Source of the DNA: an uncultured virus (IMG/VR IMGVR_UViG_3300044719_000152)
Taxonomy: Duplodnaviria; Heunggongvirae; Uroviricota; Caudoviricetes
DNA: 64,000 nucleotides
IMG/VR virus record: IMGVR_UViG_3300044719_000152
Reading direction: 5' to 3' (one strand)
Shown here: positions 18,869 through 63,115 of the stretch, piece after piece
How the letters are laid out: every line of letters begins with the position of its first letter
Numbering within the stretch: position 1 is the stretch's first letter
Notes under the pieces: generated by a model
The model's database searches: none
Seen by the model: the letters and a program-made list of their open reading frames with translations, nothing else
Told to the model about the DNA's origin: nothing
Program-made: the position numbers and the translations under genes

Positions 18869-19539
18869 TGACGCCCCGCCTGTTCGCGCTCGGCCGCCGG
18901 AAGCAGCGCGCCAAGCTGGCCGCCATCGCCGACGCTGCTCGCTACTACGACCGGCCAGCCGATTGCGACGGATCGGATTGCTTCCACGACGACGACGTGT
19001 GCGTGAACCTGGAGACCCGCTACGCCACCACCGAGGACGCGCTCGCGGCAGCGCGGGTGCCGAGGTTGGAGGCGGATGTTGATCGCCTGCTGAAGAGGAC
19101 GGCGAAGCTCGGCGACCTGGAGCTGGCCATCGGCGAGGCGCTCGGCCTGTCGGCTAGTGCGGGCACCGACGACCTGATCGCCGCAGTCGGTCGGCTCAAG
19201 AAGCTGGGCGAGGCGAACGGCCTGAATGCCCGCTTCTGGGCGGACCACTTCGACGAGGTACAGAAGGCCAACCGGCAGGCACTCGGCGAACACCACAAGC
19301 CCGGCCACACCGTGGCGGAGCTCATCACCGCGCTCGTCGGTCAAGTCGACCAGTACCGCGAGTTGCTCGGCTCGATCTGGCTGTACATCAGCTGGCGCTC
19401 AGTTACCCGACACCTCACCACCGAGCAGCGGGAACTGTGGGCGGAAGCGGTCGAGTCGTCCGGTGACCCGGACGAGCGGATCGCCGCGGACCGGTGGTGG
19501 CGCGACGACGCGCCGGCTGAGACGGGAGGCGCGGAGTGA
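18868..19539 (+). CDS. hypothetical phage protein
   Basis: TGATG coupling, high GC3. Confidence 0.65.
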   Translation: MTPRLFALGRRKQRAKLAAIADAARYYDRPADCDGSDCFHDDDVCVNLETRYATTEDALAAARVPRLEADVDRLLKRTAKLGDLELAIGEALGLSASAGTDDLIAAVGRLKKLGEANGLNARFWADHFDEVQKANRQALGEHHKPGHTVAELITALVGQVDQYRELLGSIWLYISWRSVTRHLTTEQRELWAEAVESSGDPDERIAADRWWRDDAPAETGGAE

Positions 19540-19832
19540 AGATCGGACCACGCACCGCGAAGCTCCTCCGCGAGGCCATCCTGCTCGCGCACGTCCACGG
19601 CTCTTGTTGGGGCCAAGCCAATCCCCGGCAGCTCGGCGGCGACGACGACTATCCGAAGGACTCCGAGGTTGTCAGGCAGGTACTGGTCTCGGCAACCCGA
19701 AACGCGGACAAGTTCCCCACGCTGGCGAAGCTCGATGTGGCGCAAGAGGCCGACGCCCGGCACCGGCAGGCATTCACCGAGGAGATCAAGCAGTTGATGG
19801 CGCAGCGCGCCGAGCAGAACGGAGAGCGGTGA
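19536..19832 (+). CDS. hypothetical protein
   Basis: GGAGG RBS, coupled. Confidence 0.6.
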   Translation: MKIGPRTAKLLREAILLAHVHGSCWGQANPRQLGGDDDYPKDSEVVRQVLVSATRNADKFPTLAKLDVAQEADARHRQAFTEEIKQLMAQRAEQNGER

Positions 19833-20374
19833 TGGACTGGCGACACAGGGCGGCATGCCGCGACGAAGATCCCGAGTTGTTCCATCCGGTCGGCAGCAGC
19901 GGTCCGGCGCTCTTGCAGATCGCCGAGGCGAAGACCGTATGCCGTCGCTGCCCGGTGGTGTCGCTCTGTTTGACCGAGGCGCTCGGCATGAAGGACTGCT
20001 CGGGTGTCTGGGGCGGCATGTCCGAGGACGAGCGGGACGCGTTGAAGCGCCGGCAGGCCCGAACAAGGCAGCGTTCCCACGTCGTCGAGGAGCCTCCGGA
20101 GGAGCCGGAGCAGGCCACGCCGGTCCGGGTCGACGGCCGCCTGATGGCCGCGCCGGCAACCGTCCTGGGTCGCCTGTATCAGGAGCGCACGTCGGACCAG
20201 CGTCAGCACGCGCTGATGAGCAACGGCCGCTCGGCGTGCGGGTCGACCCGCCTGGACACGGATCGGCAGCGTCCAGTGGCGGAGTTGGGTGCGTCGCGGC
20301 GCTGCCGAACGAAGGCGTGCACTCGGCTGTTCACGGTCGCCGACCAGGAGCACCTGGTGTTCTCCCATGGCTGA
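19832..20374 (+). CDS. whiB: WhiB-family Fe-S transcription regulator (WhiB1-like) with C-terminal extension
   Basis: MDWRHRAACRDEDPELFHPVG...CRRCPV...C...GVWGGMSEDER; 4 conserved Cys and GVWGG turn. Confidence 0.92.
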   Translation: MDWRHRAACRDEDPELFHPVGSSGPALLQIAEAKTVCRRCPVVSLCLTEALGMKDCSGVWGGMSEDERDALKRRQARTRQRSHVVEEPPEEPEQATPVRVDGRLMAAPATVLGRLYQERTSDQRQHALMSNGRSACGSTRLDTDRQRPVAELGASRRCRTKACTRLFTVADQEHLVFSHG

Positions 20375-22915: not shown

Positions 22916-22984
22916 CTGTCCAGTTAGGAAACGGGAAACACCTTCCCCGGCAACCAGTCCACACCCGACACTGAGGTGCAACCC

Positions 22985-23359
22985 ATGACCGCCAGCACCG
23001 TGTGCGCGTTCTGCGAGATCGTCGCCGGCCGCGCACCCGCCACCTTCGACCGCACGTGGCCCGACGCCATCGCCATCCGGCCGCGGCGAGGAGGGGTCAA
23101 CGACTCCCACGTCCTCGTCATCCCCACCGTCCACGTCGCCGACGCCGGCGAGAACCCCGCCGTCACCGCCGCCGTCATGGCCCGGGCCGCCGAACTCGTC
23201 TCCGAGCGGCAAGCCGCCAACATCATCACCAGCAAGGGCGTGGCCGCCACCCAGAGTGTGTTCCATCTCCACGTGCACGTCATCACCCGCACCGACGGCG
23301 ACGGGCTGCCGCTGCCGTGGACACCCCAGCAGACCAAGGAGGAGACCCGCCGTGGGTGA
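22985..23359 (+). CDS. HIT-family nucleotide hydrolase
   Basis: CAFC, HVLVIP..H, QSVFHLHVHVI histidine triad. Confidence 0.9.
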   Translation: MTASTVCAFCEIVAGRAPATFDRTWPDAIAIRPRRGGVNDSHVLVIPTVHVADAGENPAVTAAVMARAAELVSERQAANIITSKGVAATQSVFHLHVHVITRTDGDGLPLPWTPQQTKEETRRG

Positions 23360-34234: not shown

Positions 34235-35191
34235 TCAGGACAGGCCCTTGGTCGCCATCCACGTGCGCACCGCGGTCACGGCGCGGTGGTTGTCGCCGAC
34301 GTGGTGCTCCCTCAGCCACGGCCGGAGAGCAGCGACCAGAGCCTGGTCAGCAGGGTCCACAACCGGCGGCGCAGGGACGGGCGTCGGACCGGGGGTGGGC
34401 TGGACGGGAAACGGATTGGGCTTCCCCGTCAACACGGCGAAGTCCTCACCCAACCCATGCAGGTCGACCCCTTCCGGGCTGTGGCCGGTCGCGTCCAGCC
34501 ACTCCGGCGCGACGACGACCCACGCCTCCTCGACGTACTGCGCCCACCACGCGTCGGCCACGTCCTGCGTCCGCGCCCACGTCACCACCCGCACGGTCTC
34601 GCCCGGCGTGCTGTAGTAGCCGACCGGCACCGCGTGACCGCCGTCGATCCCGCCGTCCGGGGCGACCACCGTCCAGGGCTGGCCGGCGTTGAACTGGTCC
34701 ATCGCCGAGTTCGGCAGGTTCACCCCGAGGCACAGGGCGCCGAACACGTTGATCGCCGCGTCCACCTCGGACTGGTTGTGGATGTCGACCTCGGCGTAGG
34801 CCAGGATCTTGTGCCCGGCGATGCCCACCTTCAGCCAGTAGGCCAGCGCGTCCTGGATGACGGTGCCGTTGTCGGTGCTCGGGTCGGACGGGTCGAATCC
34901 GGTGACCGCCGTGTAGCCGTCGAGCAGCGCCTGCTCCGGCACGGTGACGGTGCTGCCGCCGCCGTACGTGGAGAACGCCTCGATCAGGTGTCCGATCATC
35001 GCCCACACGCAGTCGCCGTACTGGTCGTTGCCGTACATCGGCCACGACCCGACCCGCGAGAGCCAGTCCACCACCGCGGGGTTCGGGGGCACCGCCGTGT
35101 TCAGGTGCGGCGCGAGCTTGAGCCGCGGCTTGCTCGGGTCGTTCGGGAGCCGGCCGAGTCGCCCGGCCCGCTGCGGTTCCATCGCCGTCAT
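34235..35191 (-). CDS. papain-like cysteine peptidase in lysis cassette (possible second endolysin)
   Basis: GNDQYGDCVWA (Cys), GGHAVPVGYY (His), VVTW. Confidence 0.75.
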   Translation of the reverse strand: MTAMEPQRAGRLGRLPNDPSKPRLKLAPHLNTAVPPNPAVVDWLSRVGSWPMYGNDQYGDCVWAMIGHLIEAFSTYGGGSTVTVPEQALLDGYTAVTGFDPSDPSTDNGTVIQDALAYWLKVGIAGHKILAYAEVDIHNQSEVDAAINVFGALCLGVNLPNSAMDQFNAGQPWTVVAPDGGIDGGHAVPVGYYSTPGETVRVVTWARTQDVADAWWAQYVEEAWVVVAPEWLDATGHSPEGVDLHGLGEDFAVLTGKPNPFPVQPTPGPTPVPAPPVVDPADQALVAALRPWLREHHVGDNHRAVTAVRTWMATKGLS

Positions 35192-48102: not shown

Positions 48103-48390
48103 CTACTTCTTCTTGCCGGACTTGATGCCGGTGACGTTGATCGACGGGTACTTGCGCGCCACGCGCTGCTGGATCTGCTTCTGCTGCGCCGGGGTCGCGT
48201 TCTTGGCGGCGCGGCCGAGAGCGGCGCGCGCGTGCGCTGCGTCATCCAGGCGGTACTTCTTCTGCTTGGGCAGACCGAAGTCGGAGGCCGGCATCTTCGC
48301 CCGGCCGCCCTTGGTGTTCTTCTTCGCGTTCGCCGCCTTGGACAGTGGCGACTTCATCGGCTGCCCGTTGTGCCTGCTCTTGCCGGCCAT
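48103..48390 (-). CDS. small basic protein (DUF6582-like)
   Basis: MPASDFGLPKQKKYRLDDAAHARAAL. Confidence 0.7.
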   Translation of the reverse strand: MAGKSRHNGQPMKSPLSKAANAKKNTKGGRAKMPASDFGLPKQKKYRLDDAAHARAALGRAAKNATPAQQKQIQQRVARKYPSINVTGIKSGKKK

Positions 48391-48648: not shown

Positions 48649-49115
48649 GACTGGTCCACCCAATTCAGCGCGAGGTCGAAGGTGTACGAGGCGTAGAGGC
48701 CGATGTCGCCGTAGGACCGGCGCGGCTCGGTCACCACGTACGCCGACAGCACCCGGGCGTTCGGGTAGCCGGCTGGCAGCGTGAGGAGCCGCGGCACGTT
48801 GCGGAGTTCCGCGTCGGTGCGCGGGTAGCAGGCTCGGACGATGCATTCGGCGAGGTAGTTCGCCTTGTTCCACGGCGGCTTGGTGGACTGGGGCTTGCAC
48901 GCCCAGGTGTCCACGGTGACCACCGGCTGCCGCAGAGCGTTGTCCAGCACCGGCCGGCCGCCGGTCGTGCGCACCGTCACGAAGCCGCTGGCCGCCCACG
49001 TGCTGTTGTCCGACGGCAGCTGGCTGGCGACCATGGCCGGCGTCAGCCCGGTCACGCCGCCGAGCCAGGCGACCGCCACCAGGTCCGTGTTCGCGCGCAG
49101 CACCGGGGACGTCAC
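48645..49115 (-). CDS. tail terminator
   Basis: DLVAVAWL...VTVRTTGG...PVVTVDTWA; position in module. Confidence 0.75.
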   Translation of the reverse strand: MTSPVLRANTDLVAVAWLGGVTGLTPAMVASQLPSDNSTWAASGFVTVRTTGGRPVLDNALRQPVVTVDTWACKPQSTKPPWNKANYLAECIVRACYPRTDAELRNVPRLLTLPAGYPNARVLSAYVVTEPRRSYGDIGLYASYTFDLALNWVDQS

Positions 49116-49579
49116 GACGCACCGCCGACCTGCGCACGAAGCGCCTTCACCTCGGCCAGGAGTGCCGCGTGGTCGGCGCGCATCTCGGCGATGATCTGAC
49201 CCTGCTGCACCACGAGCTGCTTGGTGTCCCGGTTGACCTGGTAGTCCGACGCCGCCGCTATGGCCGACACCTGGTCACTGCGCTTGGCCGCGATCAGCAG
49301 GATCGCGCCCTGGAGCGCGGCCACGCAGGACAGCACGAGGTTGAGGAGGATGAACGGGTACGGGTCGAAGCCCTGGCTGCCGTTGAAGGCCATCCACAGG
49401 GCGAGGAACGCGATGGCCGCGAACACGAAGCCCCACGAGCCCATGCCGTTGCGCATCCGGTCCGCAGCCCGCTCACCGAGGGACAGCTGGTCGTGCGACG
49501 GCACCACCGGGTGGTGTCGCCAGTGGTCGGTCATCGCGAAGTACTCGCGGACGAAGGCATGCCAGGCGCGGCGCATCAC
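49112..49579 (-). CDS. DUF1003 membrane protein
   Basis: GERAAD...GSWGFV...FDPYPFILLNLVLSCVAALQGAILL. Confidence 0.85.
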   Translation of the reverse strand: MMRRAWHAFVREYFAMTDHWRHHPVVPSHDQLSLGERAADRMRNGMGSWGFVFAAIAFLALWMAFNGSQGFDPYPFILLNLVLSCVAALQGAILLIAAKRSDQVSAIAAASDYQVNRDTKQLVVQQGQIIAEMRADHAALLAEVKALRAQVGGAS

Positions 49580-52947: not shown

Positions 52948-54006
52948 TCAGCTGCCGGAGTTGTCTTCCAGCACGGAGAAGGCGTTCTCGTGGCCGACGG
53001 CGAACGCGCGCCGAGCACGCATCTTGAGGATCGACTCGTCGGTCAAGGCGGCCAATCCATTCCTCCCGTCAATGAAGACGGACTCGGGTCCACTGCGGAC
53101 ACCGAGCAGCAGGAACTCCTTCGAGCAGATGACCAGCAGCGGGTTGCCGGTCGGCGTCGCCGTCGGCGCTGCCGAGGTGCGGGCACCCAGCGTCCACTTG
53201 ACCGGGTAGCCGAACAGCATGTCCGGGGTGGACGCCTGGCCGCCACCGGGGAAGCCGCCGCTGGACTCCTGGAAGATCGGCCGGCCGTTGAGGTCCTTGA
53301 TGCCGCGCAACTTCCTCTTGAACGTCGGGTGCGCGAGCACGAGGGCCTGCTCCTCGTCCCAGTAGTCGCCGGTTTCGACCAGGCCGACCGTGGTGGACAG
53401 CAGGTCGTAGGTGGTGCCACCCGAACCGGTCTTGGTCAGGTTCGTGTTGGCCTGGTAGCCGGTCGCCGAGTCGGTCTGGGTGAGCGTGTAGTAGAGCGAG
53501 TCGAACGCGCAGCCGGAGGTCGCCTTCGCCGCGGTGACGCCCAAGCAGGCGTTGTCGAGGCCCTTGGCGTAGGCCGTGGCCCAGTCGGACAGCTTGGTGT
53601 TGACCACGTCCGCCAGGCTGTCGTCGATGTCCTCCTCGGCGATCCGCACGGCCTTGCCGAACTTCTGGACGCTCAGGATGACCTGGTCGTTGGTCGACTG
53701 GTCCTCGCCGTACGTCCCGCCCTTGGCGACGATGTCGATGCCGACACCGCCGGACCGCGGGGTCGAGCGCGTGGCGGTCTTCATCGGGACGCGCTGGCCG
53801 TAGGACTCGATCGCGGAGACCTGCTTGACCTTCTGGATGACGTCGGAGCCGAACTCCTCCCAGACCCAGGCGTCGAAGTTGTTGCGGGCGCTGCCACCGA
53901 GGGCGCGGATCGGCTCGCCGTTGCGGCGGTAGCCGAGGATGTCGCCGACGTCGTGCGCCGGAACGGACTCGTCGAACAGGTCGAGGTCGAACTGGGATGC
54001 AGACAC
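52948..54006 (-). CDS. major capsid protein (HK97 fold)
   Basis: KFGKAVRIAEEDIDDS, LRGIKDLNGRPIF, LFGYPV, LKMRARRAFAV...AFSVL; GGAAGG RBS before GTG. Confidence 0.92.
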   Translation of the reverse strand: MSASQFDLDLFDESVPAHDVGDILGYRRNGEPIRALGGSARNNFDAWVWEEFGSDVIQKVKQVSAIESYGQRVPMKTATRSTPRSGGVGIDIVAKGGTYGEDQSTNDQVILSVQKFGKAVRIAEEDIDDSLADVVNTKLSDWATAYAKGLDNACLGVTAAKATSGCAFDSLYYTLTQTDSATGYQANTNLTKTGSGGTTYDLLSTTVGLVETGDYWDEEQALVLAHPTFKRKLRGIKDLNGRPIFQESSGGFPGGGQASTPDMLFGYPVKWTLGARTSAAPTATPTGNPLLVICSKEFLLLGVRSGPESVFIDGRNGLAALTDESILKMRARRAFAVGHENAFSVLEDNSGS

Positions 54007-54225: not shown

Positions 54226-55008
54226 CTACCGCATCGAGTTGTGGATCTGCGCGGCGATCCGTTCCCCCGTCGTCTTGAACTGCGCGGGCGCGGGCTGCTT
54301 GTTCCCGGCGTCGATCCGCGGCGCGCGGCGGCGCTCCGGCTTGGCCGGCTCCGGCTCGGCGTCCTTGCCGAACAGCTCGGGGAACTCGTCGACCAGGTCG
54401 TCGATCTGGTCCTCGAGGCCGTCGACCTTCCCGGTCTCGGTGTCGACGTCGAGCTCGTCCATGTCCAGGCGCCGGATCATGCGGTTCAGGCGCTGCTCGG
54501 TGGGGTTGCGGAAGTCCGCCTTCATCAGCGCGGCGATCGCGGCCGACCGGATGGCAACCGGCTTGAACTTCTGCTCGGCGGCCTCCAGTGCGGCCTGCTC
54601 CCGCGCCGCGGCGTCCTCGTCGCCGGCCTGGCCGCCGCCCTGCTCGGCGGCGCGAGTGGACTTGCGGAGCTCGCGGACGCGGAGCCGGTGCTTCTTGGCC
54701 TCGGCGTTCGCCTCGGTGAGGGCCTTCTGGGTCTTCTCCCACTCCTCGCGGGTGGGCGGCTTCCACTCGTCGCCCTTGGCCTTGTCGGCGCCGTCGTCGT
54801 GCTCGTCCTCCTCGTCTTCGTCGTCTTCGTCGTCGAGGATGTCCCGGCCGCCGCCGCTGCCCTGCGAGCCGCCGCCCTCCAGGTCGATCTCGGGGCCGTC
54901 GTCGTCATCGTCGGCGCCGCCGAGCGCCGGCCAGACGGGCGTGCCGTCGGAGAGCAGCCCGATGGCGGGCAGGAGCGTGTCCGGGTGGATGGGCAGGTCG
55001 AGCAGCAT
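54226..55008 (-). CDS. capsid scaffolding protein
   Basis: acidic N-region, ALTEANAEAKKHR coiled coil, FPELF; AAAGGA RBS. Confidence 0.85.
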   Translation of the reverse strand: MLLDLPIHPDTLLPAIGLLSDGTPVWPALGGADDDDDGPEIDLEGGGSQGSGGGRDILDDEDDEDEEDEHDDGADKAKGDEWKPPTREEWEKTQKALTEANAEAKKHRLRVRELRKSTRAAEQGGGQAGDEDAAAREQAALEAAEQKFKPVAIRSAAIAALMKADFRNPTEQRLNRMIRRLDMDELDVDTETGKVDGLEDQIDDLVDEFPELFGKDAEPEPAKPERRRAPRIDAGNKQPAPAQFKTTGERIAAQIHNSMR

Positions 55009-55025
55009 GGCGGCGTTCCTTTCGA

Positions 55026-56105
55026 TCATGATCGGGCCTTGCGGGGGAAGTCGTTGAACCGGCCGCGGCGGACCGCGGTGCGGGCACGGGCCTGCACGGA
55101 CTTCGGCAGGGTCGTGCCGCGGGCGAGCAGCCGAGACGCGGCGCGGAGCCTGGCCGGCTGGGACTCGGACGCCATGCGCCAGCCGGTGAGGATGCTGCGC
55201 TCGGCCTCCCGGCGAAGCGCGGCCGGCAGGTCGGGGCCGGTGTAGCCGGGCACGCTGCCCAGCCACACCGTGATCCGGCACCGGCAGTGCGGATGCAGCG
55301 GGCATCCGGGCAGGAACATCGGGTCCGGCCACGGCACCAGCGGCTTGTCGCCGAACGTCAGCCCGACCGGGAAGCCCTGGCCAGCTCTCGCGACGTGCCC
55401 GGAGTAGGCGAGGCAGTGCACGCACGCGTCCCGCTCCGCGACCCACAGCCGCTCGGCGTCGAGCTGGTCAGCGACCGCGGCGACGCCGTCGTTGACGGCC
55501 TTGTTCGTGGCCCATGTTGCGGTCGCCTCGGTCGCGGTCGCTGCCTGCTGCGCCGGCGACAGTGCGGTGGCCAGCTCGGCGAAGTTGTTGCCGGCGATGC
55601 GCGTGACGGCGGTTTCGGCGTCGGCGAGCTTGCCGGCGACGGTGGCGTCCACGGCGCGGATCGCGTCCACGGTGGCCTGGTCGAGGTCGGCCGCTGGCCA
55701 CTCGAAACGAGCCGCGCGGCGGCCGGTCGCCGGCAGGACGTGCTCGACGGCTCCTTCGGTGGCGTGGAGGTGCAGTTCGTCCACGGCCTGCCGCACACCG
55801 AGGTCGATGGCCTGCTCCGCGTACCGAGTCAGTTCGTCGGCCGGGGTGAACCGGATGTCGGCGAGGTGGTTGCGTGTCTCGGTGGCGATGTCGTGCAGCG
55901 TGATCGGGTCGGCCGGCTCGTCGACCCGGCCAACCTTCCGCACCCACAAGGCGGAGAGCGTGCGCGTGAGCGCCTTCAGCTTGGCGCGTAGTGGCGCCGC
56001 GACACCGCGGGCCGCCCGCTCGAGGGCCAGCGCCTCGGCGGCGTGCTCCAGCACCAGCTGCAGCGTCGGCTGGTTCGGGGTTTGTGGCGGCTGCGGGGCG
56101 GTCAC
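55026..56105 (-). CDS. minor head protein (MuF/gp7-like)
   Basis: WVAERDACVHC...PLHPHCRC. Confidence 0.8.
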   Translation of the reverse strand: MTAPQPPQTPNQPTLQLVLEHAAEALALERAARGVAAPLRAKLKALTRTLSALWVRKVGRVDEPADPITLHDIATETRNHLADIRFTPADELTRYAEQAIDLGVRQAVDELHLHATEGAVEHVLPATGRRAARFEWPAADLDQATVDAIRAVDATVAGKLADAETAVTRIAGNNFAELATALSPAQQAATATEATATWATNKAVNDGVAAVADQLDAERLWVAERDACVHCLAYSGHVARAGQGFPVGLTFGDKPLVPWPDPMFLPGCPLHPHCRCRITVWLGSVPGYTGPDLPAALRREAERSILTGWRMASESQPARLRAASRLLARGTTLPKSVQARARTAVRRGRFNDFPRKARS

Positions 56106-57760
56106 GCTGTGCCCGTGTCAGGGCCCATGAGCTCGGGCTCGCCGATGATCGAGCTGATCAGCTCCTGCACCTGGCCCTCGTCGACGATGCCGGTCGAGGC
56201 CGCGGCCGAGAGGCCCTGCAACGCGACGGCGATCTCCGAGAGCAGGTGCACGCGGAACGGCAGGTCGTCGTCGTTGTCGCCGAACCACTCGTCGGTCTGG
56301 TCCTTGGTGTAGCCGGCCTCCTGGAACGCCTGCGCCGGCGGGACACCGGCGTCGAGCTTGGCCTGGACGGTCTGCCAGCCGGTGAGGTCGTCCACGCTGG
56401 CCGGGGACTTCCAGTGCACGGTGACCTTGGGGTCGGGGACGCCGGTGATGCGCAGGGCGAACTCGAAGATCTCCCGCCAGGTCGCGCCGAAGGACAGCTG
56501 GCGGTTCACGATCTTCTTGACGAACGGCCCCTCGGCGGTGCGCAGGGACTCGCCGGACGGGGCGTCGCCACTGGGGTCGAAGTAGTGGAACGGGGTGACG
56601 CACAGCTGGGCCATGGCCCGCAGGTAGACCTGGAGCGGGCCCATGAACGTCTCGGGGTTGGCCTCGGCGAACTGGCCGACCTCGGTGACGCCCTGCATGT
56701 ACCAGAGCGAGCCGGGGTCGCTGGTCAGTTGGGACTGCGGGTCGGATGGCCGGCTGGTGGCGCCGGTGTCGAGGGCGAAGCTGAACTCGTCCTCGTCGGA
56801 GTTGACGGCGTCGGCGGTGTCGGTGTCCGGCGCGGTGAGCGCGTACCGCTGGGGGAAGGCTTGGTAGTCGACGCCAGCCATGTGGCTGAGGATCAGCTTG
56901 TGGATCGCGTCCTGCGGGCCGAACGCGGACAGGTGCTCCGGCTTGCCGTACGGCCGGCTGGCCGCGCGGAAGTGAAAGACGGGGACCTCGTTGAACGGAT
57001 TTACGAGCGGCCACTCGTCACCCGGGTTGTCCCGGTACGGGTGCATGTCGCCGGCCTCGACGTTGGTGACGCCCTCCTTGGAGATGAACCGCTCGATCCG
57101 GTCCGGGTAGTACAGGTCGATGCGGACCTGCTGGGTGTTGTTCAAGATCCATTTCTTGACCGCGTACCGCTTCCGCAATGGGCGCTCGGGGTCGTAGAAG
57201 ACCCGGCAGCAGTGCGGGCTGTTGTAGAAGATGTCGACGTTGAGGAACCCGTCGGCGTCGGTGTCGAGCAACTGGGGCGAGCCGTCGCCCTCGAAGTCGT
57301 CGGCGCCGTCCGGGGCGGTGGGCCAGACGATGACGTAGGCGTCGCCGTACTCGCACGCCTTGAGCATGATGTGCGGGGCCTCGAGGTCGAGCTGGTTGTC
57401 CCGCCACATGTCCTCGATGCGGGCGTTGCTGTTCTCGTCGGTCGCGGAGACGGCGTTTATCTCCAGGCGGTCGACGACAGCGTCCACGGGGGTCTTGGCG
57501 AAGTTGAACCGGAACCCCACACCGGTGCGGGCCATGGCGCGGCGGAGCCGGATCGAGGCGAAGAACTCGGGGACGGTGCCCTCGTAGTAGTTCTCGGCGC
57601 GCTGGTAGAGCACCGCGGAGGTGGTGAGGGATTCGATCGCGTTCTGCAGGTCCGAGGGCGATGATGGGCGCCATACGCCGTAGGCAGAATCCGACATGAG
57701 GGTAGGGGTGGCCGCGACGCCCATGGTGGCCTGATCGGTCAACGCGAGGTTCTTGTCCAC
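56102..57760 (-). CDS. portal protein (SPP1 gp6-like)
   Basis: NYYEG, NFAKTPVDAVVDRL, AFPQRY, PSGESLR. Confidence 0.92.
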   Translation of the reverse strand: MDKNLALTDQATMGVAATPTLMSDSAYGVWRPSSPSDLQNAIESLTTSAVLYQRAENYYEGTVPEFFASIRLRRAMARTGVGFRFNFAKTPVDAVVDRLEINAVSATDENSNARIEDMWRDNQLDLEAPHIMLKACEYGDAYVIVWPTAPDGADDFEGDGSPQLLDTDADGFLNVDIFYNSPHCCRVFYDPERPLRKRYAVKKWILNNTQQVRIDLYYPDRIERFISKEGVTNVEAGDMHPYRDNPGDEWPLVNPFNEVPVFHFRAASRPYGKPEHLSAFGPQDAIHKLILSHMAGVDYQAFPQRYALTAPDTDTADAVNSDEDEFSFALDTGATSRPSDPQSQLTSDPGSLWYMQGVTEVGQFAEANPETFMGPLQVYLRAMAQLCVTPFHYFDPSGDAPSGESLRTAEGPFVKKIVNRQLSFGATWREIFEFALRITGVPDPKVTVHWKSPASVDDLTGWQTVQAKLDAGVPPAQAFQEAGYTKDQTDEWFGDNDDDLPFRVHLLSEIAVALQGLSAAASTGIVDEGQVQELISSIIGEPELMGPDTGTA

Positions 57761-57879: not shown

Positions 57880-59484
57880 TCAAGAGGCGATGTCATCGGC
57901 ATCGAACCCAGCCGGCGGCAGCACGGTGACCTTCGACTTCTTGCCCGGCTTGAGGAACATGTCGATGCCGGTGCCAATCGCATCCACCAGGTCGTCATGC
58001 GCGCCCTTGGGGAAGCCGACCATCTGCTCCTCGGCCTGCGTCAGCGGACGCTCGTGTACGACGTACGGCAGCCCGTCCGGCCGGCGGCGCTGGTACCAGT
58101 TCAGGGCGCGGGCGGCCCGGACCTCCTTGGCCTCGCCCTGGTGCACCGGTTTGATCGGCAGCGGGAGTCCCTTGAGGACGCTGTCCCGCCAGACTTGGCC
58201 GCCCTGGTTCGTCTCGACCACCACGCCGCGCGTCTCCGGGAACTCCTCCAGCACCTCCAGCACCCACTTGCGGAGCGGCTCGCCGGGCTGGACGCGCCGG
58301 GCGTGGGCGTAGCGGACGACGACCCGCCGGTGGTGCGCCGAGTAGGCAACGACGGCCAGCGCGGTGAAGTCGCTCTTGCCCTTGTCGGTGACCGCCGGGT
58401 CAATCGACAGCAGCTGGTGCGTGAGTGCAGGCACGGTGGCGTGGACGAAGTCCTCTTCGCGCCAGTACTCACCGTCCCGACCCATGGGGTCGTTGGCGTA
58501 GTTCTTCTTGTAGGCGCGGGTGTGCCGGATCGATTCGAGGTAGGCCAGTGGCCACTTCGCCGGCCACAGGCTCCGCTCGGCGCCAGTCTCGTCGTCGCGG
58601 ACGATCGCCGGGTAGTAGTGGACTCGCCAGTGCTCGTCGGCAATCCACGGCGGGTGTTCCTCGCCGGGCTTGGTGACGGTCTTGACCAAGTCGTGCACGA
58701 TGGAGCCCGGCATGGTGACGGTGCCGACCAGGACCACGCGGGCATAGACGTTGAGCGGCAGGATCGCGTCGAGCAGTGTGGAGAGCCGCTTCTCCTTGAG
58801 ATATGGCGAGTAGTTCGACTCGTCGGGCTCGACGTCGTCCAGCACGATCAGGTCTGGCCGCCGCTCAGCGACCTTCATGCCGAGGGCGGCGCCGTCGACA
58901 CCGCGGGCGGCGAACACGAACCCGGACTTGGTGATCAGCATGCCGCGGTTGTCGGACTCGGTGCTTCCGCGCGGCCGGCGGGCCGGCGTGCACAGCTGGG
59001 GGAAGTCCAGCGCCAGCAACGCGTTCTGGTCGAGCTCGCGCTTGAACGTCTGGAGGTGCAACTCGGCCTGCGTGGCGGAGTGTGCAAAGGCGGCGCAGAA
59101 CCGGCGGTGCCCATGCGCCGCGGACCAGAGGGGCAGCACGAGGAAGAACCAGGTGCTCTTACCGACGCCGCGGGGGCCGACGTAGGTATCCCGGTCCTCC
59201 GCCGGGTTGTCGGATGGGAGCGCCCACTTCTTCGCCTCGACGACGACGTCCAGGTGGAACTCGCTGAACGTGATGCGCTCGCCGGTCTCCTTACCCCGCA
59301 GGTGGTGCGGCAGATACAGCAAGGCGAACAAGAGCGGGTCGTACTTGGTGAGGAGCCGCCGGCACTCGGCGATCTCCAGCATCCGCGGGTCGAACTGCGC
59401 GAGGTACGCGTCCAGGTTGAAGCCGACCCCCGACGCCGGGTCTGCCGGGTCGGGGGTCGGCTCGTGATCCTGGACAGCGGTCAC
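57880..59484 (-). CDS. terminase large subunit
   Basis: GPRGVGKST, RPDLIVLDDVE, SIDPA...SDFTA, HDDLVDA. Confidence 0.92.
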   Translation of the reverse strand: MTAVQDHEPTPDPADPASGVGFNLDAYLAQFDPRMLEIAECRRLLTKYDPLLFALLYLPHHLRGKETGERITFSEFHLDVVVEAKKWALPSDNPAEDRDTYVGPRGVGKSTWFFLVLPLWSAAHGHRRFCAAFAHSATQAELHLQTFKRELDQNALLALDFPQLCTPARRPRGSTESDNRGMLITKSGFVFAARGVDGAALGMKVAERRPDLIVLDDVEPDESNYSPYLKEKRLSTLLDAILPLNVYARVVLVGTVTMPGSIVHDLVKTVTKPGEEHPPWIADEHWRVHYYPAIVRDDETGAERSLWPAKWPLAYLESIRHTRAYKKNYANDPMGRDGEYWREEDFVHATVPALTHQLLSIDPAVTDKGKSDFTALAVVAYSAHHRRVVVRYAHARRVQPGEPLRKWVLEVLEEFPETRGVVVETNQGGQVWRDSVLKGLPLPIKPVHQGEAKEVRAARALNWYQRRRPDGLPYVVHERPLTQAEEQMVGFPKGAHDDLVDAIGTGIDMFLKPGKKSKVTVLPPAGFDADDIAS

Positions 59485-59611
59485 ACCTGCTCCGGCGGTC
59501 GGTGAGCGTCACAGCACCCGTCGGCCGTGACCTGGCCAACGCACTCCTCGCTGTCGCGTTGGCACGGCAGGTATTCCTCGTCGGACACGAGCGGGCGGTC
59601 GAACCCGGGGC

Positions 59612-59917
59612 TCATGCCGGCCACGCCCAGTTGCCCGGCTGGTCGCCCTCGACGCGCGAGGTCGCCCAGTACTGGCCGTACCCGTCGAGTTGCACCATCA
59701 GGTTGGCCGTGGTGGTCGACGGGTCGAACACGGCGACGATCGTCGCTGGGTAGATCTGGCCGGCGTGGACCGAGTTGCGCTGGTAGATGTCGTACTCGCC
59801 GCCGTCGAGGCGGGTGCCCTTCCGGTGCTGCGGCGCGTGGGAGTCGATGAGGGCAAGGTCGCCCTCGCTGACCTTGTAGAGGACGTGCGCGCCGATGCTC
59901 GGCTTCTGGTCGGTCAT
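59612..59917 (-). CDS. hypothetical phage protein
   Basis: KPSIG..VLY...PATIV...NL.V.LDG...W.WP. Confidence 0.7.
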   Translation of the reverse strand: MTDQKPSIGAHVLYKVSEGDLALIDSHAPQHRKGTRLDGGEYDIYQRNSVHAGQIYPATIVAVFDPSTTTANLMVQLDGYGQYWATSRVEGDQPGNWAWPA

Positions 59918-59994
59918 GTCACTCTCCGTTCATCAGCATTTGCAAGTGCGAGTGTTTCGCCGGGGATCTCCGGCACTTGCGTCACGGTCAGTTG

Positions 59995-60705
59995 CTATCC
60001 AACCCACCGCCACGGCACCGGGTCTGGTCGGAGCGCCGCGTTCAGCGCGTCGTGGTGGACCACGACGGCCGTCCCAGGTGGTACGAGCGGGCTGTACCGG
60101 ATCGGCAGGTCGGGCATCGCGCCGACGGCGACGCGCGTCATCACGGCGGGACCGTCGGCCGCTCGGCAGTAGAGGGCGCGGCCGGTCAGCTCGGTCGGCT
60201 CATGCCGTGCCTGCTGCATGTGGGCAACGGCGACGCGCGCTGCGTCTGCGATGTGCCGCTCCAGCTCGCTCGCCGGCGCGACCGCCGCAGGCATGGCCAG
60301 CGGGGAGAAGTCGAGCACCTCGACGGGCTCCTCCTCGACGTTCCCCGCGGTGATCCGGTACGACCGCACCTCGGGCTCGTCGGCGCGGAGCGAGACGATG
60401 ACGTAGTGCGCGTCCGGTTCGGCGGCGTACCGCACATCCGGCGCGGACGGGTACGCCTCGGTGGCCGGGTGGGAGTGGTAGATGACCACCGGTTGCTCGC
60501 CGCGCCGGTCCATGTCGAGCCACACGGCGAGCTGCTCGCCGGGGTCCATCTCGTAGCGGCTGCGGGACTGGGCGGCGTTGCGCATGGGGACGTGCCGCTC
60601 GGCGAGCCCATCCCGGCCGGCGAGCACGCCGCACGCTTCGAGGGGTGCTTCGGCGCGGCAGTGGGCGACCATGGCGTCCAGGAGGTCACGGCGTAGGCGC
60701 AGCAC
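59995..60705 (-). CDS. Mov34/JAB (JAMM) metallopeptidase, Mec-like, with C-terminal extension
   Basis: EACGVLAG...IYHSHPATEAYPSAPD (E-x-HxH-x10-D); GGAGG RBS before GTG 60705. Confidence 0.9.
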   Translation of the reverse strand: MLRLRRDLLDAMVAHCRAEAPLEACGVLAGRDGLAERHVPMRNAAQSRSRYEMDPGEQLAVWLDMDRRGEQPVVIYHSHPATEAYPSAPDVRYAAEPDAHYVIVSLRADEPEVRSYRITAGNVEEEPVEVLDFSPLAMPAAVAPASELERHIADAARVAVAHMQQARHEPTELTGRALYCRAADGPAVMTRVAVGAMPDLPIRYSPLVPPGTAVVVHHDALNAALRPDPVPWRWVG

Positions 60706-60889
60706 TGGGTGCCTCCGGTTCATCCAGGGCGGCGCGCAGGCCGTCGATGATGTACTGCACGGAGCCCGACGCGCGGTGCTCCTCGTCGTGCTCCAGCGAC
60801 GTGATCGCCTCGCGGATCGCGGCGCCGAGCCGGTCGACGCGGCGGCCGAGGATCCGGGCCAGCGCGGTCGAGGTGGCCGAGGCGCTCAT
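60686..60889 (-). CDS. hypothetical protein
   Basis: coupled ORF. Confidence 0.55.
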   Translation of the reverse strand: MSASATSTALARILGRRVDRLGAAIREAITSLEHDEEHRASGSVQYIIDGLRAALDEPEAPSAAPTP

Positions 60890-61083
60890 GCCGGCTTCCC
60901 CTTGACCTCGACCCAGTCGACGGCGGTGAGGTTGATGAGGCGCTGGCCGGACGCGTCGTTGATGGTGAGGACGCCACCGAAGCCGAGGTCGTCGACCAAC
61001 GCGGTGAACTGCTTCAGCTCGTCGTCGGTGGGGCTGTAGGCGACGGTGTCGCCGTTGCGCATGTGCAGGACGATCGGGATCAC
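60886..61083 (-). CDS. hypothetical protein
   Basis: AAGGAG RBS. Confidence 0.6.
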   Translation of the reverse strand: MIPIVLHMRNGDTVAYSPTDDELKQFTALVDDLGFGGVLTINDASGQRLINLTAVDWVEVKGKPA

Positions 61084-61556
61084 GGCTGCTCCTTCGAAGC
61101 GGGCGGCCACTCGCTGGCCGGCACGAACTCGGCCGGCGGCGGCGCACCCGCGCGCCGATACCGCAGCGGCTCCCAGAACGGGCCCGGCAGCACGTGCACG
61201 CCGAGGTGCGTCCGGTGGTGCGTCGCGCACAGCGGCTCTAGGTTCCCCGGCCCCTCGATCCACGCCTGGAAATCGGCGTCGGACTCGAAGTGCAGGCCGA
61301 ACGCCGCGGCGACCTTGTCCGGGTCCATGTTGTTGACCTCGGAGAACTCGATGTGGCTGTGGTGCAGCTCGATCGGGCCGCCGCACAGGTCGTCGCCGAT
61401 GACGCACTTCCACAGGCCCTGCCGATGGAGCCGGGCCTTGGCCTGCATGAACAGGTGGTAGTGCGGGTCGGACTCGCGGGGTTGGTGCTCCGGGACGTGG
61501 GCGAGGATGTGCAGCGTTAGTCGCTGCTCGTGCGCCGGCGTCGGGTGGTCAACCAT
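61080..61556 (-). CDS. HNH-like nuclease near terminase
   Basis: C......C...IELHH...NLEPLCATHH. Confidence 0.65.
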   Translation of the reverse strand: MVDHPTPAHEQRLTLHILAHVPEHQPRESDPHYHLFMQAKARLHRQGLWKCVIGDDLCGGPIELHHSHIEFSEVNNMDPDKVAAAFGLHFESDADFQAWIEGPGNLEPLCATHHRTHLGVHVLPGPFWEPLRYRRAGAPPPAEFVPASEWPPASKEQP

Positions 61557-61848
61557 CAGTCGGCTCCTTCGGCTTGGCGTCCTTCAACTCCGCGTCCGCC
61601 CACCGGCCCCAGAACTCCGCCTGCGCCTGGGCTATCGCCATCTGGAAGTCGAGCTCGGCCGTGGCCGCCGCCTTCACGGCTTCCTCGATGGCCTGCACCG
61701 TCCGGCACGGCCACGTCTGCGGGTTCTCGCCAGCGCACTCCGCGCAGCTGCCGTACTCCTCGTGATGCAGCCGCAGCACCGCCGCCGCGACAGGGTTCGC
61801 ACTCGACACGCGGGCCAGTTCCACCACGCGGTCCCAGTCAGCTGCCAT
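61549..61848 (-). CDS. hypothetical protein (H...CxxC...WPC zinc-like)
   Basis: LRLHH...CAEC...WPCRT. Confidence 0.6.
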   Translation of the reverse strand: MAADWDRVVELARVSSANPVAAAVLRLHHEEYGSCAECAGENPQTWPCRTVQAIEEAVKAAATAELDFQMAIAQAQAEFWGRWADAELKDAKPKEPTDG

Positions 61849-62377
61849 CGACGCCGCCCTTCAACCGGGCCTCGGCCAGCGCGGCGTCGGCCTTGGCCTT
61901 GTTCACCATGTCGATCAGTTCGAGGTCCTGCTGCGTCGTCTCCGTCAGCGTCGCGTCGACCTTCAGCGCGCCCTCCGTGCCGTGGAGGCGCATCATGCGA
62001 CCCACCAACGACTCGGCCCGGCCGATCGCCGCGAGCGTCACGCCGGGGTCCTCCAGCGGTGCACCGTCCGGGCCACGCACGACGCGGCCGTCCGACACGA
62101 GCGGGTGCGGTGTGCGGATGATCTCGACGGCCCGGTTGAACAGCCGCTCCAGGCGGTCGTGCTGGACGCGGCGGTACTGCTCGCGAAGCGGGTCGACGGT
62201 CTCCCGGATCTCGCACTCCAGGCGCCGGCTGACGGTGGTCTTGGACAGGCCGGTGAGCTCGGCGATCTCGCGGAGGTTGTGGCCGGCGAGGTACAGCTCG
62301 TAGCAGATGCGTTGTTCTTCGGCGAAGTGTGCGTTGGTGTAGCGGGGCTTGCGGTAGGGCTGGATTCCCCCGGCCAT
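61838..62377 (-). CDS. probable terminase small subunit (HTH)
   Basis: LAGHNLREIAELTGLSKTTVSRRL; AGGAGG RBS; near start of the late operon. Confidence 0.7.
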   Translation of the reverse strand: MAGGIQPYRKPRYTNAHFAEEQRICYELYLAGHNLREIAELTGLSKTTVSRRLECEIRETVDPLREQYRRVQHDRLERLFNRAVEIIRTPHPLVSDGRVVRGPDGAPLEDPGVTLAAIGRAESLVGRMMRLHGTEGALKVDATLTETTQQDLELIDMVNKAKADAALAEARLKGGVDGS

Positions 62378-62412
62378 CGCGTTCCACCTCCTACGTTCCG
62401 TTTGCCGGCGTG

Positions 62413-62643
62413 CTATTTGTTACGTGTGAGTGCGGCCCGGATTCGCGCGGCGCGTGTCCTTGTGGTTCCGTGCCCGGCCTTGTTCTTGGGGAGTGAGCGG
62501 TAACCAGTCTTCTTTCCGCGCTCGGCGACGATCTGCTCGGCCCAGCGGTGCGCGAAGGGCTTCTTCGTGGCGAACATCCATCGCCACTGAGCTTGCGAGT
62601 GGGCTGGACCTGGCGATTTGCGGTGTCCGTGTTCCTTGGGCAT
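62413..62643 (-). CDS. small basic protein
   Basis: SQAQWRWMFA motif; GGAGG RBS. Confidence 0.6.
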   Translation of the reverse strand: MPKEHGHRKSPGPAHSQAQWRWMFATKKPFAHRWAEQIVAERGKKTGYRSLPKNKAGHGTTRTRAARIRAALTRNK

Positions 62644-62677
62644 TCACGCCTCCCCGTCGTTGTTTCCCTGGCCAGTA

Positions 62678-62926
62678 TCACCCGCCGAGGTGCATGAGGG
62701 CGTCGGCGTCCGCCGTGGACGGAGTGGGCGCGTCTGTGCTGGTGGCGGGCTGGAGGGCGACGAGTTCGAGATGCAGCGTGCCCGTGGGGAGTTGGGTGGC
62801 GCGGACCTGGTGGTTGTCGGGGAGGAATTCGTTGGGGCGGATGCTGGCGGTTCCTCCGGCGCGGGCGACGAGTACGCAGAGCACTGCCTGCGTGATGTCT
62901 TTGTCCGTGCTTTCAACTTCGCTCAC
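62678..62926 (-). CDS. hypothetical protein, first late gene
   Basis: AGGAG RBS. Confidence 0.55.
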   Translation of the reverse strand: MSEVESTDKDITQAVLCVLVARAGGTASIRPNEFLPDNHQVRATQLPTGTLHLELVALQPATSTDAPTPSTADADALMHLGG

Positions 62927-63115
62927 GGTGTGCTCCTAGCTATTCGCTGGGCGTTATCGCCATCGTGTTCGTGTTATCAAACCGTGGCGTGTCGGCGGGT
63001 CGGCGGCGTTTGTCTGTGGGTTAGCGTAGGCCGAGAGCCGTCGGCCGCCGCGACTGTTGACACCGTTTCGTTGTGCGTGGCACCGATTGTTTTTCACGCA
63101 CGAAAGGCGGTGCTG

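Follow-up and report, generated by a model that had tools for sequence, protein, structure and literature searches.

A Mec-like JAMM peptidase gene in an actinophage head module, a candidate protease for the Gly-Gly leaders of scaffold and capsid

The analyzed stretch of DNA, hereafter called the window, comprises 64,000 nucleotides of a soil actinobacterial phage with a GC content of 69%. Its head module lies on the minus strand in the order terminase small subunit (TerS) candidate, small genes, terminase large subunit (TerL), portal, MuF-like protein, scaffold and HK97 capsid (Table 1). A classical prohead protease was not found among the 17 proteins scanned. The gene studied here, encoding a JAMM (JAB) metalloprotease, is located between the TerS candidate and TerL within a cassette of small genes, as the original prediction had stated; the TerS match is a weak one. 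A promoter scan of positions 59400-63000 disclosed nothing exceeding chance. Elsewhere in the window, two small and very basic proteins (DUF6582-like; phrog_1375) are encoded on the minus strand at 48103-48390 and 62413-62643, in and before the structural operon, and a DUF1003 membrane protein is encoded in the head-tail region (49112-49579, minus strand). Accessory genes specify a HIT-domain protein (22976-23359) and a WhiB-domain protein (19226-20374), both on the plus strand. Near the lysis region, a 318-aa gene on the minus strand (34235-35191) matched phrog_19005, to which no function is assigned, with an E value of 8e-33; by eye its product exhibits a papain-like Gly-Asp-Cys motif.

Table 1. 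Positions of the JAMM gene, the leaders and the head genes in the window
Feature	Position	Strand	Remarks
Terminase small subunit candidate	61838..62377	minus	HTH; weak Sf6_terminase match, E 0.003
Exchangeable small-gene cassette, HNH gene to TerL	59484..61107	minus	from comparison with L004
Small ORF, ~65 aa	60886..61083	minus	upstream of the JAMM gene; kept in L004 and L002; no family
Mec-like JAMM/JAB metalloprotease gene	59995..60705	minus	236 aa; GTG start, GGAGG upstream
JAMM catalytic core, residues 1-130	60316..60705	minus	E23 at 60639, H77 at 60477, H79 at 60471, S87 at 60447, D90 at 60438
Variable C-terminal tail, residues 131-236	59998..60315	minus	106 aa; last ~60 aa common to P0002-P0004 only; no family
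Terminase large subunit	57880..59484	minus	phrog_38, E 9e-68
Portal protein	56102..57760	minus	phrog_104, PF05133
MuF-like head morphogenesis protein	55026..56105	minus	phrog_241, E 8e-5
Scaffold leader ending ALGG	54916..55029	minus	start ATG at 55029 or, more likely, ATG at 55008 behind AAAGGA
Scaffolding protein	54226..55029	minus	PF06810, phrog_4708
Capsid leader ending ALGG, 38 aa	53893..54006	minus	from GTG at 54006; predicted cut before Ser-Ala-Arg-Asn
HK97-fold major capsid protein	52948..54006	minus	TIGR01554, PF05065, phrog_10

JAMM enzymes cleave after the C-terminal Gly-Gly of ubiquitin-like (Ubl) proteins, and Mec is a CysO-Cys peptidase. The protein encoded in the window matched the Prok-JAB family PF14464 over residues 7-118 with 107 bits (E 5.9e-31; cut-off 25). 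The predicted E...HSH...D motif was intact, and its residues E23, H77, H79, S87 and D90 were invariant across the alignments. The AlphaFold model reached pLDDT values mostly >90 in the core, and Foldseek assigned to the predicted model the JAMM/MPN fold with matches to 2KKS and 5LD9. An NlpC domain was not detected in the protein by family search. Judged from its sequence, the gene is real and its product a member of the JAMM/MPN+ family (Prok-JAB, M67), predicted to be a Zn peptidase.

The proposed resemblance to Mec was affirmed by alignment with five named cellular Mec-like proteins, to which identities were 57-62%. Among the best 120 of 2,348 homologs, approximately 21 proteins with variable tails scored 188-251 bits and cellular M67/Mec proteins about 160 bits. 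A metagenome scan gave cellular-type Mec loci showing 54-63% identity (best 80 of 594). In a quick tree calculated from 76 rows and a small number of columns (139), from which three near-duplicate phage rows had been excluded, the protein fell outside the cellular Mec clade. It resided in a non-cellular clade of 23 rows (SH-aLRT 98), apart from 38 cellular rows (95), while the remaining phage JAMMs were long-branched and without firm placement. With NF041370 the protein scored 89, which is below the cut-off of 130. A CysO-like ORF was not found in the window, as had been foreseen (best score 3.3 bits), and the ThiS and PALP families, searched for cysO and cysM, gave no match in five related records including the nearest complete one of 76 kb. 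The data indicate that the protein is a JAMM enzyme with a Mec-like core, yet not a canonical Mec.

The extra C-terminal region of about 100 aa noted in the original prediction proved to be a tail of variable sequence among the JAMM relatives in the alignment. It is in frame with the core, as GC3 values of 0.86 in the tail and 0.93 in the core show, and its predicted model had a pLDDT of 49. As a stand-alone family the tail had no match at E 0.01 among proteins of 58-186 aa, and in viral contigs the twin of the window was the sole match. We also considered that the tail might be a capsid A-domain-like piece, a notion prompted by sub-threshold structure rows of the ESM Atlas; it was discarded after hhalign against 80-odd capsids had given a probability of 0.7%.

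Comparison with L004, a near-identical phage, disclosed that the cassette is exchangeable. The flanks of L004 are 97-99% identical to the window and the entire cassette has been swapped, but despite this swap L004 keeps the JAMM core (84% DNA identity) together with the small gene upstream of it. Judging from this one comparison, retention of the core would fit selection, or a role as recombination anchor. Two further genes of these cassettes were recorded. A small ORF following the JAMM gene in L004 (L004:10664-10942) recalls by eye a fragment of a capsid A-domain, and the TerS-TerL cassette of the relative L002 harbors a phospholipase-D-like gene (L002:1516-2067; HxK...D by eye).

The ALGG leaders described for scaffold and capsid are present in the window. 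The tetrapeptide alone occurs nine times in its six frames; hence, support for the leaders comes from their conservation across phages and not from the tetrapeptide. For this purpose 89 capsid loci were counted, near-duplicates included, taken from IMG/VR (80 loci, the best 80 of 179) and from eight cultured phages. In 43 of them a leader ending in GG (37), GG-S (5) or GA (1) stood right before a conserved mature start, A-R/A/E-N/D, and in 40 loci a start codon was found at that very position; three loci were of another kind and three unclassified. Since leaderless capsids start where the leaders end, a cut after Gly-Gly would yield the N-terminus which leaderless relatives obtain by removal of Met.

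The consensus of the leader is approximately [IL]G[YH]RxDGxP[IV]xx[IVL]AGG, with A or S as the next residue. A profile of it gave 287 matches at E 0.001 in 1.84 billion representatives. Multi-stretch matches were repeats and were excluded; of the 111 single-stretch matches examined among the best 150, 108 had the motif end at residue 13-52. Most of 87 scanned matches hit scaffold or scaffold-like PHROGs belonging to several unrelated families. When the leader alone was used as query in cultured phages of Gordonia, Mycobacterium and Streptomyces, 30 of 32 weak matches were annotated scaffolds and one more was the GenBank twin of a scaffold record. The idea that the leader belongs to a Pfam family was dropped, as 0 of 52 members matched. 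A solved relative was not found for this phage family; the N-terminus of the solved capsid 9LW6 matched the leader motif weakly (E 0.12). Other motifs were seen at two places. In the phages Dryad, Lizz, Yara and Wentworth (L092, L093, L094, L099) the Gly-Gly leader is retained on the capsid, but the scaffold has another motif resembling a leader, PFxPxxYA[DS]G[GD], in front of an acidic run. In H75 (MW584153.1, 16079-16147) one weak leader match lies under a gene annotated as tape measure protein, and may be a leader of a tail protein or a chance match.

The original prediction had proposed to examine the co-occurrence of JAB genes and leaders across phages, and such an association was indeed observed. 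In a capsid-first approach, PF14464 was searched through the whole records of 50 loci, selected from the 80 for their longer records. JAB genes were present in 15 of 28 records with a capsid leader and in none of the 22 remaining ones, of which 21 were leaderless or of another kind and one was unclassified; at a completeness of at least 70% the values were 8/12 and 0/9 (p 0.005, uncorrected for kinship). Similarly, among 21 prophages in named genomes, a set overlapping the IMG/VR capsid-first set, a second JAB was detected on the prophage contig in 4/4 cases with a capsid leader (Actinosynnema, Saccharothrix, Actinocrinis and a Pseudonocardiaceae MAG) versus 0/17 with a leaderless capsid. The latter, prophages of Streptomyces and Kitasatospora, mostly had a scaffold leader.

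The converse, JAB-first approach used a DNA pattern and returned 47 records, comprising 15 Mec-like JABs, three distant JABs and 29 non-JAB records, the last being a weak control since many are probably not actinophages. Leaders were found in 13 of the 15 Mec-like JAB records, the other two being fragments of 20-23%, one of which (L002) breaks off inside a leader-like start; none occurred in the 29 non-JAB and the three distant JAB records. Six of the 13 were new, and in five of these the capsid belonged to the same family (35-59% identity) and had a leader, while the capsid match of the sixth (G386; E 0.004) remained below confirmation. Finally, in 50,697 cultured-phage records (E 1e-3) the sole Mec-like JAB, besides one tail-tip match, was that of Dryad, whose capsid has a leader. 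On the capsid tree the leader changes about three times and JAB six times, so that the association is borne by roughly two leader lineages.

JAB was absent from four of 12 near-complete leader-capsid records, from three of four cultured Streptomyces phages with a capsid leader and from all five cultured phages with a scaffold leader. Close kin without the gene are Lizz, Yara and Wentworth as well as L103, L127, L128 and L130. With so many leader phages devoid of JAB, the phage copy cannot be solely responsible for the cut. Its placement between TerS and TerL is not conserved among relatives: in L104, L106, L009, L116 and L124-126 the gene is found between those for scaffold and capsid, and in L110, L118, L137, L138, L145 and Dryad it is remote from the head genes. 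JABs near head genes sit among unrelated small genes.

A post hoc inspection by eye disclosed leader ends other than Gly-Gly in 12/36 cases in JAB-positive phages versus 2/36 in JAB-negative ones (p 0.006); without the JAB-first finds the counts were 7/29 and 2/36 (p 0.07), kinship and ascertainment being uncorrected. A drift of the leader end away from Gly-Gly in JAB-positive phages is thereby suggested at most. In phages with divergent JABs (L311, L325, L312, L323 and L313; G408, G388, G397) both leaders are off Gly-Gly, and scaffold and capsid of G408 have LWG. This hints at a joint drift of enzyme and site.

Host genomes were inspected for Mec and CysO as well. A Mec-like match was obtained in 264 of 301 sampled Actinomycetes genomes (88%), including streamlined genomes of 1.3-1.5 Mb; without the unpublished genomes G095, G100, G107 and G320 the figure was 260/297. 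All 21 lysogen hosts had a cellular Mec-like JAB. Since Mec is near-core in the hosts, phages lacking JAB have a candidate cutter there. That even streamlined genomes possess Mec might indicate a housekeeping substrate other than CysO-Cys. PAVAGG was the end of all 27 CysO-like sequences located in 92 host loci; among 70 distinct leaders, 42 ended in AGG and three in AVAGG, the resemblance to the CysO end being a short one. A host protein with the same leader, which might be a native substrate in the manner of L27, was sought and rejected: 14 of 301 genomes gave matches, of which the convincing ones resembled prophage scaffold or capsid genes by sequence and the rest were like chance. Strong leader matches fell in Mec-positive genomes in 8/8 cases, which is uninformative at a base rate of 88%.

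We consider it fairly probable that the gene is an optional phage copy of a leader-cutting protease of the Mec type, the JAMM counterpart of the staphylococcal Prp processing. The enzyme would be a Zn-dependent endopeptidase that removes the N-terminal leader from capsid and scaffold by cutting after Gly-Gly, taking the last strand of the leader for the C-terminus of CysO, the sulfur carrier of the host. Host Mec can probably make the same cut, and this substitution would explain why many leader phages have no JAB gene. Phages in which the leader resides on the capsid, made in hundreds of copies, and not only on the scaffold might often carry the extra accessory copy for reasons of dosage. Of the two functions originally put forward, the processing of the leaders was upheld in part: co-occurrence, the Gly-Gly register relative to leaderless capsids and the data on phage Patience given below favor it, whereas the gene is optional and its position inconstant.

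Other explanations have to be weighed against this one. Another host protease may cut the leader, or the leader may stay on the protein and serve as a tag for folding or assembly; the JAMM gene would then be a lineage-restricted accessory gene travelling along in the same phage group. The few independent leader lineages, the varying position of JAB among morons and its dispensability in close kin agree with such a scenario. So does phage 80alpha, where leaders are reported to matter for assembly without needing cleavage: cleavage is dispensable for viable capsids, though the scaffold leader is needed (PMC5744158). However, the JAB-first search yielded the gene almost only together with leader capsids, the core was retained through the cassette swap, and a second, unrelated JAB family occurs in the head module of Patience, whose published head-protein N-termini fit processing after Gly-Gly. 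We regard this explanation as unlikely. Somewhat less likely still is an auxiliary metabolic gene (AMG) whose product would use CysO-Cys of the host, or further adducts of sulfur carriers, as substrate and thereby boost cysteine supply or redox defence during infection. The high identity to Mec would suit this function, virome work lists phage mec as a viral AMG (PMC11097641), and host mec-cysO-cysM is described as stress-induced (PMC8280819). Against it, the related records searched yielded no cysO or cysM, the phage proteins form a separate, long-branched clade, and the restriction to leader-capsid phages would be left without a reason.

The second branch of the original prediction, a deconjugase counteracting host defence, received no support. 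Bil and type II CBASS defences use Ubl-type conjugation, and the enzyme was thought to strip Ubl tags put by them on phage proteins. JAMM chemistry permits deconjugation, and counter-defence genes typically show the patchiness and mobility seen here. Yet the match to a PADLOC JAB profile was weak and partial (E 0.0013, residues 2-45), the enzyme shares 21% identity with the bacterial Ubl-DUB chain 8TYX_B compared to about 60% with Mec, and the link with leaders would not be explained. Our literature search found no paper on a phage anti-defence enzyme of the JAMM deconjugase type. We deem this function quite improbable.

If the gene product is indeed a leader-cutting protease, it would provide the maturation step so far lacking for head modules without a prohead protease gene. 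Mec would gain a further function as host factor for phages, and a JAMM enzyme would be seen cutting a peptide-sized Ubl mimic. Some viral mec genes filed under metabolism would have to be re-labelled. A wider generalization is conceivable, although we hold it to be somewhat short of probable: many temperate actinophages may tag their scaffold, and often their capsid, with a CysO-mimicking leader that is removed by host Mec, making Mec an assembly host factor across actinomycetes, and the phage "mec AMGs" may be head-maturation proteases that also let the cut site of the leader drift from Gly-Gly. A JAB processing of Gly-Gly head leaders was not found described in the literature searched, which lay mostly outside subscription papers.

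Compared to known systems, the enzyme shares the JAMM core and the catalytic residues with the actinobacterial CysO-cysteine peptidase Mec (M67, PF14464). It differs by its separate phage clade, the lack of adjoining cysO/cysM, the variable tail and the proposed internal cut instead of CysO-Cys release. The prokaryotic JAMMs HvJAMM1 and DRJAMM are reported to cleave fusion proteins of the linear type after Gly-Gly (PMC4443979, PMC8832034); their substrates are folded Ubl (beta-grasp) domains, unlike the leader of only 30-40 residues. For the lambdoid tail proteins K (JAB-NlpC/P60) and I (Ubl), it has likewise been suggested that a virion assembly protein is processed at a glycine by a phage JAB (PMC1779556), but that system involves the tail tip, a full beta-grasp substrate and a fused NlpC domain, none of which applies to the window enzyme.

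Published data that fit processing after Gly-Gly exist for one other phage, the mycobacteriophage Patience. In mass spectrometry, peptides of its scaffold gp21 begin at residue 35 after a glycine, which the authors did not explain (PMC4324244). Gly33-Gly34 lie directly before this residue. The cryo-EM model of the Patience capsid is reported to begin at Thr20 (PMC11965321), at odds with the cut at 82/83 proposed earlier (PMC4324244). Directly before Thr20 the capsid has Gly18-Gly19. A lack of density in cryo-EM does not, however, prove cleavage. Patience resembles the window by a stand-alone JAB near the head genes, its gp19, a Prok-JAB of the head module, and by Gly-Gly leaders on scaffold and capsid. 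The gp19 family occurs in 98 records, a few of which are labelled "capsid maturation protease" in GenBank. In contrast to the Mec-like, optional and mobile enzyme of the window, gp19 belongs to a distant JAB subfamily with a steady position, and it was missed by the cultured-phage search with the window enzyme. Adjutor (L198:9669-11000), a relative of Patience, has an LSG-HD motif on scaffold and capsid instead of Gly-Gly, with a JAB gene, gp11, next to them; its capsid model is stated to begin at Asn28, not after Gly-Gly (PMC11965321).

With 80alpha and Prp the window has in common a short leader that is shared by scaffold and capsid. The 80alpha leader is described as mimicking the native substrate of the host protease (PMC5744158, PMC9405229), and the leader of the window may do so likewise. 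A related capsid-cleaving phage protease is mentioned for Cp-1 (PMC9405229). Prp is reported to be a cysteine protease (C108) cutting an F-A site that mimics L27, whereas the candidate here is a Zn JAMM enzyme predicted to act on Gly-Gly at a CysO-like end. The system of the window would operate in the manner of Prp-type leader processing without belonging to it, as enzyme and site differ. The contribution of the window consists in a Mec-like copy that is optional, mobile and retained when its cassette was swapped, in the test starting from JAB and in the recognition of a near-core host enzyme.
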